Part shown: positions 19,934-63,551 of the stretch, piece after piece
How positions within the stretch are numbered: the first letter of the stretch is position 1
How the letters are laid out: every line of letters begins with the position of its first letter
DNA from: Nitrosopumilaceae archaeon
GTDB taxonomy: Archaea > Thermoproteota > Nitrososphaeria > Nitrososphaerales > Nitrosopumilaceae
Direction of reading: 5' to 3'
Assembly: GCA_965209085.1 (NCBI GenBank)
Contig: OZ242376.1
Location: forward strand, 352,001 to 416,000
DNA length: 64,000 bases
Notes under the pieces: generated by a model
Databases searched by the model: none
What the model saw: the letters and a program-made list of their open reading frames with translations, nothing else
What the model was told of the DNA's origin: nothing
Program-made: the position numbers and the translations under genes

Positions 19934-20812
19934 ATGGATTTTCAAAAGATACTAAACGAATACACTTTGGAGGATTTTCCTGCAGGCCTGACCGGATGCA
20001 GAAGTGACGGCACATCGCACGAATGCTGCGAATATGATCTTACTGTATTTGATGAACGCAATGAGCTTGATACTGTGGCAGAATACGGGGATTCACTAGT
20101 ATGCATAAGACACCGTTCACTTTCATCGCCGCGTTCTCCGGACATGGTAAGATATGATGATATGAAAATAATTTCCGATGCATCGTGGGATCTGCACATG
20201 TTACTTGCGCGCATACGTGAAAAACGAACCGAACTGTATGCCGATTACATGAGGGATTCACTTATCGATTCGATGTTTTGCACCACAAAATTTCGAGAAG
20301 GGTTGAAAATGTCGGATCCATTTGCAATCTGCTGGATAAAATGTGCCGCGTTGTACCTGGCTGATGCCGCACTTTTATCATGCATGGAAAGACCGTCTCC
20401 AACACACGCACTGCATAAACTTCGCATGGTGCAAAAAAAGATCTCCGGTAACGCGTTTTCACTGGTAAACGAATGCATGGGAGCTGAACGCGCCACACCT
20501 TCGCTGCTTGAACGCATGGCAAAATCCACCGCGGGATTTTCCGATACGGTGGAAGGAAACGATCATTCAAAAATAATACTGCACAAAACCAAATATCTTT
20601 TGTCCGAATCGCTTTTGGCAGACTGTTATTTCTATCTCCAGTATGAAAACAGGAACATGCTGATAAAAATAAAAAACCAACTCCGAAAGAAACCCGATCT
20701 GATTTACATATTAAAAGTGTCAATGGATGTGGGGGTGGATACGGGCATGCTGGAAAATTACGCCCACAGGCTGTACGGGGAGGCAAGCCGTATACTTGCT
20801 GAACGTACGTAA
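19934..20812 (+). CDS. Hypothetical protein with nucleotidyltransferase-like N-terminus
   Basis: GLTGCRSDG...CEYDLTVF followed by a helical region; start moved to ATG 19934 to avoid the CDGSH gene. Confidence 0.65.
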   Translation: MDFQKILNEYTLEDFPAGLTGCRSDGTSHECCEYDLTVFDERNELDTVAEYGDSLVCIRHRSLSSPRSPDMVRYDDMKIISDASWDLHMLLARIREKRTELYADYMRDSLIDSMFCTTKFREGLKMSDPFAICWIKCAALYLADAALLSCMERPSPTHALHKLRMVQKKISGNAFSLVNECMGAERATPSLLERMAKSTAGFSDTVEGNDHSKIILHKTKYLLSESLLADCYFYLQYENRNMLIKIKNQLRKKPDLIYILKVSMDVGVDTGMLENYAHRLYGEASRILAERT

Positions 20813-20885
20813 AATGATACGAATATGTGAAAACACCTGTGTGGTTTTTCTAAACCTTTAAACTAAACTCTTTGAAAATGTCACC

Positions 20886-21026
20886 ATGTCAGATGCATCA
20901 TGCGGTTGCGACGCCTCCAACGAGACCGGTAACATATGTGATTGCGACATACAGGGGCAATGTTTTTGCGATGCAACATGCGAGTGCAGATCCAACCTTT
21001 GTAAAGACGCAACAAAAGACATGTAA
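20886..21026 (+). CDS. Metallothionein-like Cys-rich microprotein (46 aa)
   Basis: MSDASCGCDASNETGNICDCDIQGQCFCDATCECRSNLCKDATKDM: 9 Cys, four CxC; TTTAAA about 25-30 nt upstream of the ATG. Confidence 0.78.
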   Translation: MSDASCGCDASNETGNICDCDIQGQCFCDATCECRSNLCKDATKDM

Positions 21027-21130
21027 AATGTCCATTATGCACTATTTTTTAGATACTTTTACTATGCGTGATCATTTTTTTGATAAATATACCGTAATGT
21101 ATTAAAGCAAATTTGGCATGTGGTAATTAT

Positions 21131-21919
21131 ATGAAGTACGTTTTACTTGCATTTACAATTCTAACCGTTTTTGGAGCCATACAACATGTTGCTGCACTGG
21201 ATACAGGCACTGCGGCCGAAAACGATTGTCCAAGAGACTATGATTATGTGCAAATCCAAAAAAATTCTTCGCTCTCATCATACCTAATCGATGTGACATA
21301 CGGTCCGCCTGAGATTAAACTTGGATGTGACATTGAATGGATCATAAATTTTTTAAACCCGCGCAACCAATCTGAATTTTTAGAAAACGTCCAGTATGAC
21401 ATTATTTTGGATGCATCCGTGAATAATAACGATCCGCACATTATCCAATCACTTGCATCAGACGAAGGAGGTCGGTTCCTATATTCGTCATCAGGACAGG
21501 CTGAAAAATTTATGACGGTAAACCATTCCATCAATCCGACAAAATATGTGATTCTAGTGTACGGTCTCTCACCTTTGGATGTAAAACCGTCTGGATTCTT
21601 TGAAACTTTGGAGATAAACGTACCATTTAACGAACCTACCGTACCGGTAAAGTTCGTACCGGAATGGATAAAAAAATCCGCCTCGTTTTGGATTCAGGGT
21701 CATACCGGCGACATTGAATTTGTCTCCGCAATGCAGTATCTGGTAAACGAGGGCATCATAGTACTGCCTCCTACAGAAAGCGGCTCTGACACGGACGGAG
21801 GTATCCCAGGCTGGATCAAAAATACGGTGGGATTTTGGGTGGACGGACATACAACTGATGCAAAATTCACAAGTGCCATACAATACCTTGTAAAACAGGG
21901 CATCATTGTTCTCTCATAG
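21131..21919 (+). CDS. Secreted protein with two C-terminal thaumarchaeal (V/I)PxWIK repeats; shortened paralogue of the next gene
   Basis: Signal peptide; VPEWIKKSASFW...EFVSAMQYLV..GII and IPGWIKNTVGFW. Confidence 0.82.
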   Translation: MKYVLLAFTILTVFGAIQHVAALDTGTAAENDCPRDYDYVQIQKNSSLSSYLIDVTYGPPEIKLGCDIEWIINFLNPRNQSEFLENVQYDIILDASVNNNDPHIIQSLASDEGGRFLYSSSGQAEKFMTVNHSINPTKYVILVYGLSPLDVKPSGFFETLEINVPFNEPTVPVKFVPEWIKKSASFWIQGHTGDIEFVSAMQYLVNEGIIVLPPTESGSDTDGGIPGWIKNTVGFWVDGHTTDAKFTSAIQYLVKQGIIVLS

Positions 21920-60081: not shown

Positions 60082-60255
60082 TCTTCAATTTTGATTTCCA
60101 ATATACAATACTGATTTAATAAATATACTTTTTTAATTCATAATTTTTAATAAAAATAGACATAATTTTTATTAACATTGTATTTCACAATAGACTCTTT
60201 CAAATCAGTCATTCTCATTCATAGAAATTGTGAATTTGGTCAGTCATGTATATGA

Positions 60256-60273
60256 TCTAATCTTATGATTAGA
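60256..60273. promoter_or_regulatory. Candidate operator palindrome upstream of the Met-rich gene
   Basis: TCTAATC-ttat-GATTAGA, about 25 nt upstream of the TATA-like TTTTTATT. Confidence 0.4.
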
Positions 60274-60328
60274 CGTACATTTGGATTATTTCAATACCTT
60301 TTTATTGAAATTTTTTAACTATAAACTC

Positions 60329-62572
60329 ATGAATCGTACGATGCAACTTATGGCATTATTCACAATATTGCCACTTTTGACTGTATCAATTTCAATGTCT
60401 GCAAATAACGCATACGGTGCAACCAACATCTGTGGCGTACAATTGTGTTCTGATTACCCTGGTGGCAAATCCAAGTTTGAGGAAGATAAAATGCTTGGTT
60501 ATGGATATTCTGTAAAATCTAATTCAGTTATTGATCCAACTATGATGATGAAAACCCATGATGAAAAATCCAAATATGCTATGAAAATTGCTGATTGCAT
60601 GGAAAATATGATGATGGATGAAATGATGATGAAGATGATGATGGACAGGATGATGACGGATGAAATGATGATGATGGACGAGATGATGATGGACGAGATG
60701 ATGATGGACGAGATGATGATGGACGAGATGATGATGGACGAGATGATGATGGACGAGATGATGATGGACGAGATGATGATGGACGAGATGATGATGGACG
60801 AGATGATGATGGACGAGATGATGATGGACGAGATGATGATGGACGAGATGATGATGGACGAGATGATGATGGACGAAATGATGATGGACGAAATGATGAT
60901 GGACGAAATGATGATGGACGAAATGATGATGGACGAAATGATGATGATGATGAAGAAAATGATGACGGACGAAATGATGACGGATGAAATGATGATGATG
61001 AAGAAAATGATGACGGACGAGATGATGACGGATGAAATGATGATGATGAAGAAAATGATGACGGACGAGATGATGACGGATGAAATGATGATGATGAAGA
61101 AAATGATGACGGATGAAATGATGATGATGATGAAGAAAATGATGACGGACAAGATGATGACGGACAAGATGATGACGGACGATATGATGACGGATGAAAT
61201 GATGATGATGATGAAGAAAATGATGACGGACGATATGATGACGGATGAAATGATGATGATGATGAAGAAAATGATGACGGACGATATGATGACGGATGAA
61301 ATGATGATGATGATGAAGAAAATGATGACGGACGATATGATGACGGATGAAATGATGATGATGATGAAGAAAATGATGACGGACGATATGATGACGGATG
61401 AAATGATGATGATGAAGAAGATGATGACGGATGAAATGATGATGATGATGAAGAAAATGATGACGGACGAAATGATGATGGACCACGAATTTGATTGTGA
61501 AACTTACAAAATGAAGTATGCTGATAAAATGCATAAAAAAGACAGTATGCATGGTGATAAAATGGAAGAAATGCGAGGTTCCAATGATGATGAAATGAAA
61601 GGCATGGATCACAAGAAAAAAGTTTATCTCTCTAGAGCAAATGTAGCCGCTGAAATTCCTCTACATGAAGGATATTACAATGGCGATAACGTTTACTATA
61701 TTATAACTGACGCAAGCGAACAGAGCCACGTAGATACTATCTCTACAAACCAAGATTGGAATGTTGCATATGCACCCTTACTGACCAACGCTCCAGAATC
61801 TGCACTTTCAAAAACATACATGTTCGTAAACGGTGTTGATGGGAATGGAGTACACGGATACCAATCTGAAGTATTTACCACTATTCCAGGTCAAGATAAC
61901 TATAGTCCTTTAAAATCTCATGTACACGTTGTTTGGAATGACGGTGTTTCTCCTACACTATTAACATCAGAAGATGATATCGAAACTGCTGCAGCACAAA
62001 ACAAAGTAACACTCATTCCACTAGATGTGGTAATCAACATGCCATTCATAATGTGGCCAAACGGACAATTACAGATCAATGAAAATACTATAACCGATCA
62101 TCTTGTATATGGTGGGGGTCAAATTACAGATATTGATCTTGACGACATGACCGTTACGTTCATTGCACATCGCGGATGGGGTCCTGATGGCAGCACAATA
62201 TACTATATCGTGACAGATGCCATACCATCTGGTCCTGCTGAAGCAATGGGAGTCCCACATACACCAGCTACAGCATCTTTGCTTGCAAACCCTGCCGCAG
62301 TCGATTTATACCAGTTCAAAAACGGGTTAACAGGTACAGGTCCACTAGGTTTCCAACCTGGAATTGGAGCTGCAGGTTTTGGAGATGATAATTATTCACC
62401 AATGTGGCGTATATTCCTTATTGAATGGAATGATGCTGATCATGCATCATTATTGATGACCAAAGGGGATATTGATGCTATGAATGAATCTGGAAAAATC
62501 ACCATTGAACTAGCAATGCCTATGGACTTGGCGCATATTGTAAACTGCCCGTTTATAGATCCATTCCAATAA
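60329..62572 (+). CDS. Secreted protein with a giant methionine-rich repeat tract and a duplicated globular C-terminal domain
   Basis: Signal peptide; ICGVQLCSDYPGG; MMMDE and MMTD(E/D)MMTDEMMMMKK repeats; two copies of YYI(I/V)TDA...YSP(L/M)...(N)xPF. Confidence 0.88.
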   Translation: MNRTMQLMALFTILPLLTVSISMSANNAYGATNICGVQLCSDYPGGKSKFEEDKMLGYGYSVKSNSVIDPTMMMKTHDEKSKYAMKIADCMENMMMDEMMMKMMMDRMMTDEMMMMDEMMMDEMMMDEMMMDEMMMDEMMMDEMMMDEMMMDEMMMDEMMMDEMMMDEMMMDEMMMDEMMMDEMMMDEMMMDEMMMDEMMMDEMMMMMKKMMTDEMMTDEMMMMKKMMTDEMMTDEMMMMKKMMTDEMMTDEMMMMKKMMTDEMMMMMKKMMTDKMMTDKMMTDDMMTDEMMMMMKKMMTDDMMTDEMMMMMKKMMTDDMMTDEMMMMMKKMMTDDMMTDEMMMMMKKMMTDDMMTDEMMMMKKMMTDEMMMMMKKMMTDEMMMDHEFDCETYKMKYADKMHKKDSMHGDKMEEMRGSNDDEMKGMDHKKKVYLSRANVAAEIPLHEGYYNGDNVYYIITDASEQSHVDTISTNQDWNVAYAPLLTNAPESALSKTYMFVNGVDGNGVHGYQSEVFTTIPGQDNYSPLKSHVHVVWNDGVSPTLLTSEDDIETAAAQNKVTLIPLDVVINMPFIMWPNGQLQINENTITDHLVYGGGQITDIDLDDMTVTFIAHRGWGPDGSTIYYIVTDAIPSGPAEAMGVPHTPATASLLANPAAVDLYQFKNGLTGTGPLGFQPGIGAAGFGDDNYSPMWRIFLIEWNDADHASLLMTKGDIDAMNESGKITIELAMPMDLAHIVNCPFIDPFQ
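60608..61480 (+). repeat. Coding tandem repeat: about 18 x 15-nt ATGATGATGGACGA(G/A), then 48-51-nt higher-order units
   Basis: Directly visible; all units are multiples of 3 and the frame stays open. Confidence 0.97.
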
Positions 62573-62603
62573 CCAACATATCATATTATTTATGACCGTC
62601 TAG

Positions 62604-63551
62604 ATGCGTATATTTATGATGCAGAATAAAACATTGTTTGTTGCAATTGCAGTCGTATCGTTACCAATAATATTCGCATTTGTGGCATATTCTGAAACGT
62701 TCAATCTAAGTTGGAATCAAGGTCGTGGGGGATTTTTATTTGCACTTGCATTCATAATAGCCGAGCTAATAGGACTACGGATCGGAATAGCCAAAAATCG
62801 TATTTTAATGGCAATTCCTTTGGCTTTGATTGTCATAACATACATGATCTTACTAGAAAATGGATTACGTGAACAAATTGAATCGTTAGCTAGCAATTTT
62901 GGAATTCAACTTTTACTTTCTTGGGTGTGGATGTGGGACTTTATAATCATGGCTGCGTTTACAACCGCAACATTGATCCTCTTTTTTGGCACCAAGTGGA
63001 TAAGAATAGCACCGGCAGGACCAATTTTTCTTTATGGAAGTGCAATAATATTGTCTTTAGATGCATTTTTCCCATATGATTCACTTGGCCCGTTGCAATA
63101 TTTTGTACCATATTTGGTAAATCTTAACGTTTGGCTTGTGAATTTGTTTGATCTTGGTGTAGCAAATGCATCCGGAAACATGATGTTTCTAAAGGGTGAT
63201 TTTGGTCCATTTGCATTGCAAGTATTCTGGCCTTCTGCAGGAGTACACAGCATAATTATCTACTCGCTTGTCATGATGGCATTTTTGCTTAAAATGCGTA
63301 TAATACCTAGACGAAAACTTGCTTGGTTTGCAATTGGGATCTTTGGAACAATAGTGGTTAATGTAATCCGGATCTTTTCACTCTCTTGGTATGCATTAAA
63401 AGTTACTACCGATACGGCACTTTGGGAAGAATTTCATTCCGTAGCTGGAGAAATCATGTTCCTACCGTGGCTATTCGCGTTTCTTATGATCGTCGCTGTG
63501 GTAGAAAATAAAAAATTAAAGCAACTAGACAAACAAAACGATCAAAAATAA
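62604..63551 (+). CDS. Thaumarchaeosortase (archaeosortase/exosortase family)
   Basis: Multi-TM; WNQGRGG, VFWPSAGVHS (Ser at the catalytic Cys position), VNVIRI, EEFHS. Confidence 0.88.
   Translation: MRIFMMQNKTLFVAIAVVSLPIIFAFVAYSETFNLSWNQGRGGFLFALAFIIAELIGLRIGIAKNRILMAIPLALIVITYMILLENGLREQIESLASNFGIQLLLSWVWMWDFIIMAAFTTATLILFFGTKWIRIAPAGPIFLYGSAIILSLDAFFPYDSLGPLQYFVPYLVNLNVWLVNLFDLGVANASGNMMFLKGDFGPFALQVFWPSAGVHSIIIYSLVMMAFLLKMRIIPRRKLAWFAIGIFGTIVVNVIRIFSLSWYALKVTTDTALWEEFHSVAGEIMFLPWLFAFLMIVAVVENKKLKQLDKQNDQK

Follow-up and report, generated by a model that had tools for sequence, protein, structure and literature searches.

The window analyzed here is a 64,000-nucleotide (nt) stretch of DNA from a Nitrosopumilaceae archaeon (contig OZ242376.1, positions 352,001 to 416,000 of the forward strand), whose 1.69-Mb genome consists of a single contig and is 98% complete. 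It holds the gene for a predicted exported protein, P0001, that joins a methionine (Met)-rich tandem repeat tract to two C-terminal modules of the domain family DUF7482 (Table 1). The mature protein has a computed mass of ~83.6 kDa and a computed pI of 4.2. Its only hydrophobic stretch, residues 4 to 26 (KD19 up to 1.95), agrees with the signal peptide of the original prediction, which would be cleaved after AYG; hydrophobicity windows over the whole protein revealed no C-terminal anchor. The Cys pair predicted earlier is likely joined by a disulfide, and the corresponding pattern, CG/CK-x-x-x-C, is found in 104 of the 105 listed Nitrosopumilus-type homologues. A second disulfide, Cys90-Cys390, is possible and would close the tract into a loop.

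Table 1. Features of the P0001 gene and its surroundings, in window coordinates
Feature	Position	Strand	Remarks
Palindrome TCTAATC-4-GATTAGA (7-4-7) upstream of P0001	60256..60273	.	Judged a chance feature
P0001 gene, exported DUF7482 protein, 747 amino acids (aa)	60329..62572	+	Open reading frame (ORF) call and translation
Predicted Sec signal peptide, residues 1-30	60329..60418	+	Sole hydrophobic window; homologue N termini alike
CGVQLC Cys-pair motif (Cys35/Cys40)	60431..60448	+	Common to orthologous group
Cys90 (ADC), bracket at tract start	60596..60598	+	Conserved in P0002, L059, L034
Met/acidic tandem tract, residues 91-384	60599..61480	+	294 aa as assembled, 163 Met
18 consecutive perfect MMMDE units, 15-nt period	60668..60937	+	13 with GAG, then 5 with GAA
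Higher-order MMTD(E/D/K)...MMMM(M)KK units, ~51-nt period	60938..61480	+	
Cys390 (FDC), bracket at tract end	61496..61498	+	Conserved in P0002, P0015, L059, L034
Lys/Met/Asp/His linker, residues 391-430	61499..61618	+	40 aa, 7 Met and 3 His
DUF7482 module 1 core, residues 446-574	61664..62050	+	Ends near N-M571-P
DUF7482 module 2 core, residues 614-743	62168..62557	+	His614 89% conserved; Met640; N-Cys740-P
Neighboring thaumarchaeosortase gene	62604..63551	+	Profile match, TIGR04297, 461 bits (cutoff, 250)

The tract had been described as ~290 residues long with ~60% Met; the length holds, but the Met share is 55%, compared to a genome background of 2.5%. It contains 82 Asp and Glu residues together, 26 Lys and Arg residues, and no His, the only His between Cys90 and Cys390 lying outside the tract itself. 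The predicted count of ~18 MMMDE units proved exact, and the higher-order part, bracketed by single Cys residues as stated, comprises 11 KK-ended units of 12 to 27 aa each, followed by the expected His/Met linker. In all, the linker that follows the Cys pair spans ~390 residues, 175 of them Met. The synonymous codon blocks noted earlier are real for GAG/GAA, but GAC and GAT alternate by position in the longer units and form no blocks. The reading frame is kept at every repeat step over 882 nt, and exactly repeated substrings reach at most 196 nt.

The comparison of homologues called for by the original prediction placed a Cys-bracketed tract in all four members of the clade that were seen, with differing units and lengths. 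The bracketed stretch measures 299 aa (55% Met) in P0001; 227 aa (53% Met) in P0002, which is 95% identical in the domain and uses GDEMMM, DEMMM, and KMKMMM units; and 120 aa (42% Met) in L059, a short contig 84% identical to the P0001 gene in which the repeats have decayed. L059 is one of three short contigs (with L041 and L047; 84 to 85% identical to the P0001 gene) in a GTDB bin labelled Alphaproteobacteria, which probably stem from contaminating DNA of several strains within the same archaeal genus. The sole other genome of the genus, G019, carries ~22 DEMMM units in 80 and 61 aa on either side of one frame break. There, a shortened unit breaks the frame of the array (L034:880-1420) and the database protein starts inside the array; the break is either a sequencing error or a phase-variable state. 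MMMDE is coded with GAT in G019 and with GAC in the source genome, and the three-unit pattern was found in 2 of 61 genomes searched. A further protein, P0015 (82% identical), begins inside such an array; its NCBI label, Cenarchaeum symbiont of the sponge Oopsacas minuta, suggests a host-associated lineage.

Raw data bear on the tract as well. A fraction of 0.94 of the sampled words of positions 60100 to 62600 was present in two sequencing runs from different studies (one of which may be the source), and since the tract accounts for 18% of the distinct 31-mers of this interval, most variant tract units exist in raw data. Contigs from these two runs stop inside the 3' edge of the tract and none spans it, while contigs covering parts of 61490 to 62600 in four runs showed no difference from the P0001 gene. 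No RNA data set was among the runs listed for the interval. The Cys-bracketed design recurs in three close relatives, each with units and a length of its own, so the tract is, as judged from the sequences, no invention of the assembly. Its unit structure and the differing units in sister genomes indicate that it was built by in-frame slippage, as had been proposed.

P0001 matched DUF7482 (PF24298) with 323 bits (E = 1.8e-96; residues 451 to 721; profile positions 1 to 256 of 257; cutoff, 27.5 bits) and no other Pfam or NCBIfam profile. Its named relatives are from Nitrosopumilus and Cenarchaeum, which, like the neighboring thaumarchaeosortase gene, marks the source as an ammonia-oxidizing archaeon; P0001 itself was not found in the protein collection searched. 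DUF7482 is present in 249 of 301 genomes of the family and 123 of 201 of the class; it was not found in two genera, g24 (0 of 37) and g5 (0 of 4), which have the smallest genomes sampled. The usual set per genome is two paralogues. One, represented here by L002, has a globular N-terminal domain; the other, the type to which P0001 belongs, has CGxxLC followed by a variable linker. With the orthologous group of Nmar_0730 from N. maritimus, P0001 shares the signal peptide, CGxxLC, variable linker, C-terminal HIVNCPFIDPFQ, and synteny; conserved in the latter are genes for an SNF2 helicase and a carboxypeptidase-regulatory-like protein. Among the best 120 of 1,837 matches, 104 Nitrosopumilus-type linkers measured 38 to 92 aa (median, 54 aa), with 8.0% Met and 28% acidic residues, compared to 3.9% Met in the domains. 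Long tails recur elsewhere: G028 has a Met/Asp/His tail, G014 and P0399 have His/Met tails that are likewise flanked by Cys, G070 and G088 have tails of MKDKDK, and there are, in L194 (G408:C1:1157367-1159790), 79 identical 15-nt MMDDT units (403 aa, 162 Met) that are either a very recent independent expansion or an assembly artifact. A quick tree with many open forks grouped P0001 with the Nmar_0730-type clade and left the G408 expansion outside the clade of the genus. Given the range of orthologous linkers and the recurrence of long tails, the tract appears as the extreme of a family-wide, repeat-prone variable linker, a relationship that the original prediction had missed. The domain itself is under purifying selection (ratio of nonsynonymous to synonymous substitution rates, 0.125 to 0.135 in 3 of 3 pairs). 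Relatives of 730 to 790 aa (P0003 to P0014 and P0016) have four DUF7482 modules with a short Met/Glu linker between pairs. Literature searches, which did not extend to subscription journals and unseen supplements, found no paper on DUF7482, PF24298, Nmar_0730, or arCOG08798 and nothing relevant on Nitrosopumilus together with Met-rich proteins and copper.

The duplicated globular domain predicted for the C terminus corresponds to two homologous DUF7482 cores of ~130 aa. An AlphaFold2 model of residues 430 to 747 (95 sequences) reached a pLDDT of 97.6 and a pTM of 0.93, and a one-module model reached a pLDDT of 87. A sequence search of the PDB with P0001 gave a best E value of 0.61; with the two-module model, Foldseek gave a best E value of 0.74 and VIA wide no match at Z of at least 2; and Foldseek and VIA-align matched the one-module model to no solved structure, results that are no proof of a new fold. 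The ESM Atlas held no usable match for the domain or for P0032. A profile-free search returned 588 representatives, many of them small exported one-module proteins. Among 120 sequences close to one of these, P0270, 117 had a His-x-Glu anchor, and these bacterial relatives shared a Met-Met pair in the following helix (115 of 117), an NMP motif (111 of 117), and tails with 18% Met. Fusions among 51 DUF7482 proteins scanned involved a cupredoxin, three DsbA-like domains, and one DsbD-TM.

Gene context outside the archaeal family points toward soft metals. Both plasmid matches lie in metal clusters: in Indioceanicola, the DUF7482 gene follows merT/merF/merA and a MerR-family gene in a mer operon, and in Deinococcus it overlaps the end of a heavy-metal ATPase gene, with genes for HMA and four-helix copper-binding proteins alongside. 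Metagenome context was drawn from the best 80 of 533 loci, with 105 of 237 neighboring ORFs scanned. Where at least 1,900 nt of upstream sequence was available (32 loci), 29 loci had a P-type ATPase motif upstream on the same strand; the three others had an ATPase fragment, a downstream ATPase, and a MerB-like gene. All 11 full-length neighboring ATPases passed the Cu-ATPase cutoff, TIGR01511. Other neighbors encode CopZ-, CsoR/RicR-, and MerR-like proteins, CcdA/DsbD, MerF, and MerB-like proteins. A recurring bacterial operon, seen in the metagenome loci L064 to L143 and in L063, comprises a MerR- or CsoR-like regulator, a P1B ATPase of the YPC type that carries FN for YN and has HMA domains at both its N and C termini, a one-module DUF7482 protein, CcdA/DsbD-TM, a CopZ-like protein, MacB-like ABC permeases, and, in some cases, MerF or MerB-like genes. 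YPC is also used by a verified CopA, that of Sulfolobus solfataricus (PMC4541151). Among archaea, a two-module DUF7482 gene in G406 stands head to head (84 bp) with a gene for a canonical CPC/YN/MxxSS Cu(I)-ATPase (599 bits), with a broken merA and a CopZ-like gene close by. In N. viennensis, NVIE_012720, which belongs to the same arCOG and protein family as the orthologue, adjoins merA. From this context we infer a role for DUF7482 in the extracytoplasmic handling of soft metals, mainly copper.

Repeat expansion in the source genome points the same way, in part. Short-period arrays of at least 100 nt number 28, and 26 of them fall within 23 proteins, with frames picked by eye. Only three of the 23 are Met rich (42 to 55% Met), namely P0001 and a pair of type-1 cupredoxins. 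Met does not exceed 8% in the remaining 20, among them proteins with expanded tails that we take, from their N termini, to be DnaK, GrpE, and RadA. The genome contains six PF00127 type-1 cupredoxin loci, two with Met-rich stalks. These two cupredoxins (G000:C1:770272-770940 and 132036-132698, both on the minus strand) are membrane anchored, with stalks of 60 to 80 residues and 42 to 45% Met; in the G019 counterpart of the latter (L185), the stalk is short. Met-rich stalks also occur on cupredoxins of three other genomes. Met-rich expanded linkers thus go with copper proteins in the source genome, and, together with the gene context of DUF7482 relatives, this bears out the soft-metal link proposed at the outset. 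Separately, an exported protein (G000:C1:279537-280301, plus strand) is Met rich in its central part, with 9 Met in 30 residues, ahead of a further domain, which presumably is DM13. The genome as a whole has many coding repeats, which form tails on, among others, an apparent Nop56 and an apparent DEAD helicase, and it contains giant ORFs of 6,500 to 19,900 codons.

Our leading, though still tentative, explanation is that the tract is a slippage-lengthened tail that buffers or relays soft metal, chiefly Cu(I), outside the cytoplasm and is not a scavenger for starved cells. P0001 would be exported to the space beneath the S-layer, with DUF7482 as its folded extracytoplasmic soft-metal module, as gene context suggests. 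The N-terminal linker would be a disordered acidic tail in which clustered Met thioethers bind Cu(I) weakly at many places, helped by negative charge. By analogy with Met-rich tails of the CopI, PcuC, PcoE, and SilE types, it might act as a kinetic buffer or relay beside the many cuproproteins of an ammonia oxidizer. Within the genus, the tail would be a loop between two conserved Cys residues, enlarged by in-frame slippage. The Met/acid composition and the frame seem to be maintained by selection; the extreme length is probably as much a matter of tolerance as of selection.

Published data sets offer a view of orthologue expression, the N. maritimus orthologue having been identified as Nmar_0730 by gene order in a supplement and not by sequence. 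Its transcript stood at 77 and 107 transcripts per million (TPM), with a log2 fold change of 0.04 in biofilm and 11 TPM for its superoxide dismutase (SOD) neighbor (PMC12448741 Dataset S4), and it has been detected as a protein (PMC12974425 Dataset S4). Under Cu-limited versus replete conditions, its transcript changed by a log2 fold change of -2.29 (value of Qin 2018, re-tabulated in PMC12974425 Dataset S4). Such a decrease would be as expected of a buffer for excess. Overall, orthologue expression argues against a scavenger for starved cells; for a buffer of excess, it is neutral to mildly favorable.

Several observations weigh against the buffer/relay explanation. The fall of Nmar_0730 under Cu limitation is common to many housekeeping genes in the same table (PMC12974425), and NVIE_012720 was unchanged under Cu limitation (log2 fold change, 0.18; adjusted P = 0.51; PMC7785015 Dataset S1). 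The ATPases that neighbor bacterial DUF7482 genes also pass the Cd-family cutoff, with YPC and FN in place of CPC and YN, and the 80 metagenome loci are kin (57 to 100% identical) and not independent, so they count as few events. An ATPase link, that in G406, was seen in only one of five f15-family loci examined. P1B ATPases occur in 42 of 121 genomes of the archaeal family of P0001, and only 1 of 20 regions around them contained DUF7482, 6 kb away. The source genome, at 98% completeness, yielded no P1B ATPase by TIGR01525 or tblastn, nor was CopZ found there. The bacterial motif, H-[TP]-E-x-S-D...L-T-x-M-M...N-M-P, is not kept in P0001: module 1 reads YYIITDASE (Thr-Asp) and has no Met pair, though NMP is kept, and module 2 reads YYIVTDAIP, with one Met and NCP (Cys for Met). 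The source genome also expands linkers in 20 other proteins, exported ones included. Met is dispensable in the orthologous group, since 31 of the 104 orthologous linkers have fewer than 3 Met (73 have at least 3) and Lys/Asp repeats (MKDKDK, KMISDK) make up others. Finally, the disordered Met/His-rich extension of PcuC does not coordinate Cu in the structure reported in PMC12860648.

A more ambitious version, which we regard as rather improbable, would make DUF7482 an extracytoplasmic acceptor of undescribed fold for Cu(I) or other soft metals from the P1B ATPases of bacteria and soil archaea, with the >100-Met disulfide loop selected as a high-capacity thioether gel of tunable length, a surface buffer for Cu(I) and reactive halogen oxidants that replaces the pump in a sponge-symbiont-like lineage without a copper-export ATPase.

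Among the alternatives to the buffer/relay tail, a neutral or near-neutral spacer is unlikely but the most serious. It would be a flexible acidic stalk, grown by microsatellite slippage of the ATG/GAT type under weak selection in a host-associated lineage, with no Met chemistry. The free variation in length and content among the 104 orthologous linkers fits it well, as do the use of other units in independent expansions (MMDDT in G408; MKDKDK in G070 and G088) and the frame break in the G019 array. So do the 20 proteins of the source genome with expanded non-Met repeats: a genome that lets linkers grow means that tract length need not be adaptive. Pure drift, however, would not readily account for the confinement of Met-rich repeats to P0001 and two cupredoxins (3 of 23), for a Met content of 42 to 55% maintained while units and codons turn over, or for the recurrence of Met-rich tails in distant bacterial members. 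Both flanking Cys residues are conserved, and 163 extra Met residues are costly.

The original prediction also offered an oxidant sink, which we consider improbable: a sacrificial sink in which exposed Met at the cell surface takes up HOCl, HOBr, or H2O2 or, in another form, a redox-responsive Met-rich low-complexity domain with a condensed and an open state. In 7 of 10 orthologous loci, Nitrosopumilus included, a second Fe/Mn SOD gene is found directly upstream (45 to 55 bp, same strand), but it is missing at the P0001 locus and in G019, and expression of Nmar_0730 at 7 to 9 times that of the SOD gene indicates that the two are probably not one unit. DsbA/DsbD fusions and neighbors also suit a redox role. 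In cells inhibited by H2O2, the level of Nmar_0730 protein was 1.6 to 3.8 times that of catalase or co-culture controls; the ratios of Bayer 2019, re-tabulated without significance values, are +0.12, -0.67, -1.13, and -1.92 (PMC12974425 Dataset S4). The shift is not H2O2 specific, given values of +0.12 for catalase versus non-inhibited H2O2 and -1.25, likewise without a significance value, for co-culture versus catalase alone (PMC12974425 Dataset S4), and OG0028 is not named among the responders in the main text of Bayer 2019. In the source genome, MsrA and MsrB have no signal peptides and no PF00174 (MsrP-type) gene was found. With no exported Met-sulfoxide repair found, oxidized Met would not be recyclable outside the cell and the sink would be single use. 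Met, moreover, reacts slowly with H2O2.

Very unlikely is the other original proposal, a high-capacity store or scavenger that feeds ammonia monooxygenase when copper is scarce. In principle, 163 Met residues could hold ~50 Cu(I) at three Met each, and the organism is copper dependent (six PF00127 loci) and has no Cu-export ATPase. Under Cu limitation, however, orthologue transcripts do not rise, being unchanged in N. viennensis and lower in N. maritimus in the data sets cited above. Gene context elsewhere is that of efflux and resistance, not uptake, and the genera g24 and g5, with the smallest genomes sampled, lack detectable DUF7482. Met-only sites, being of low (micromolar) affinity, would be empty at the free-Cu levels of seawater. 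That the tract is much shorter in vivo and its assembled length an artifact is least likely of all: contigs built from short unitigs stop at the tract, no long read was seen across it, and its longest exact repeat is 196 nt, but the variant blocks are ordered, the frame is intact over 882 nt, a relative 95% identical carries a 227-aa tract of other units, and 0.94 of words are present in two runs.

Several features near the gene were weighed and set aside. The palindrome upstream of P0001 exists as described, but an arm of at least 7 also arose in 224 of 500 shuffled versions of the 247-nt upstream region, the genome scan proposed for it found no second copy, and none lies upstream of the gene in L034 or L059; we therefore rejected it as a regulon site. 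A scan for sigma-70-type promoters, a model not suited to archaea, stayed at background (15 found versus 15.0 expected). The original prediction tentatively joined P0001 in one system with two Cys-rich microproteins. Only one convincing gene was found, a 46-codon ORF with nine Cys (20889 to 21026, plus strand), and with 39 kb between it and P0001 and no palindrome half-site in 20600 to 21200, the association was not upheld. P0001 is not a metallothionein (small and Cys rich), having 5 Cys in 747 aa, nor a type-1 copper protein or multicopper oxidase (cupredoxin fold, C-x-x-H-x-x-M), as the locus gave no PF00127 match and no fold match.

Next to P0001 lie genes for a carboxypeptidase-regulatory-like protein and a thaumarchaeosortase; further neighbors presumably encode an SNF2 helicase and a DinB-like polymerase. 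The thaumarchaeosortase gene also adjoins the orthologue in G019 but not in Nitrosopumilus loci, and a literature search on the enzyme found no paper. P0001 was rejected as its (PEFG-CTERM) substrate, with a C terminus of DPFQ, no C-terminal hydrophobic window, and no NCBIfam match. About 0.9 kb past the window end, a 519-aa protein (G000:C1:416938-418497) carries, ahead of a C-terminal domain that we take to be Alba, about ten GSCGCS...HEH repeats; it is a second candidate metal-binding repeat expansion near P0001, with a shorter version in G019. Transporter-like genes 4 to 6 kb downstream of P0001 (G000:C1:418611-420861), also present in G019, presumably encode a LysE-type exporter and an NRAMP-like metal transporter.

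Most ammonia-oxidizing archaea lack textbook periplasmic chaperones for extracytoplasmic copper handling. DUF7482 is near-core in the family, has no solved fold, and in bacteria is tightly linked to P1B ATPases, which makes it a concrete candidate for such handling; its members form a natural series of tails with 0 to ~170 Met on one scaffold. If the tract is neutral, it is a striking but ordinary microsatellite expansion; interest is owed as much to the uncharacterized ATPase-linked domain as to the tract.

Within its own family, P0001 resembles Nmar_0730 and NVIE_012720 (PF24298, arCOG08798, by synteny and family table) in its two-module domain, signal peptide, CGxxLC, and synteny. Unlike typical orthologues (median linker, 54 residues and 8% Met), it has a linker of ~390 residues, two extra Cys residues, and no upstream SOD gene. 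Among known metal-binding proteins, the SilE/PcoE sponges are built on HxxM and MxxH repeats, and the P0001 tract is about twice as long as SilE. The relatives of the domain attached to the tract, like the sponges, are found in metal-efflux clusters. In common with the sponges as described in PMC5008109 and PMC7558416, P0001 is exported, predicted to be disordered in its tract, and Met rich, with many potential soft-metal sites. SilE, however, uses motifs of His and Met and folds on about six Ag+ (PMC5008109; PMC7558416), whereas the P0001 tract has 163 Met and no His and is fused to a folded domain. The P0001 locus, moreover, has no sil, pco, or cus genes or two-component regulator alongside, and there is no sequence match.

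CusF is a periplasmic acceptor of Cu(I) from CopA (PMC7558416). One-module bacterial DUF7482 proteins are similar in being small, exported, and encoded behind a P1B ATPase, with a His, Met, and Met ligand set. Unlike CusF, they match no PDB chain, and P0001 has no such motif and its genome no such ATPase. The folded domain of P0001 is also not a cupredoxin, a PCuAC domain, or a multicopper oxidase and has no solved structural relative. Compared to the Met-rich extensions of CopI, PcuC, and CueO-type proteins, the P0001 tract is five to ten times longer, derived from tandem repeats, and bracketed by Cys. What P0001 has in common with CopI (PMC13308877) and PcuC (PMC12860648) is the placing of a disordered Met-rich segment on a folded extracytoplasmic domain; by its sequence, it is a member of DUF7482 and not of the SilE, PcoE, CopI, or PcuC families.

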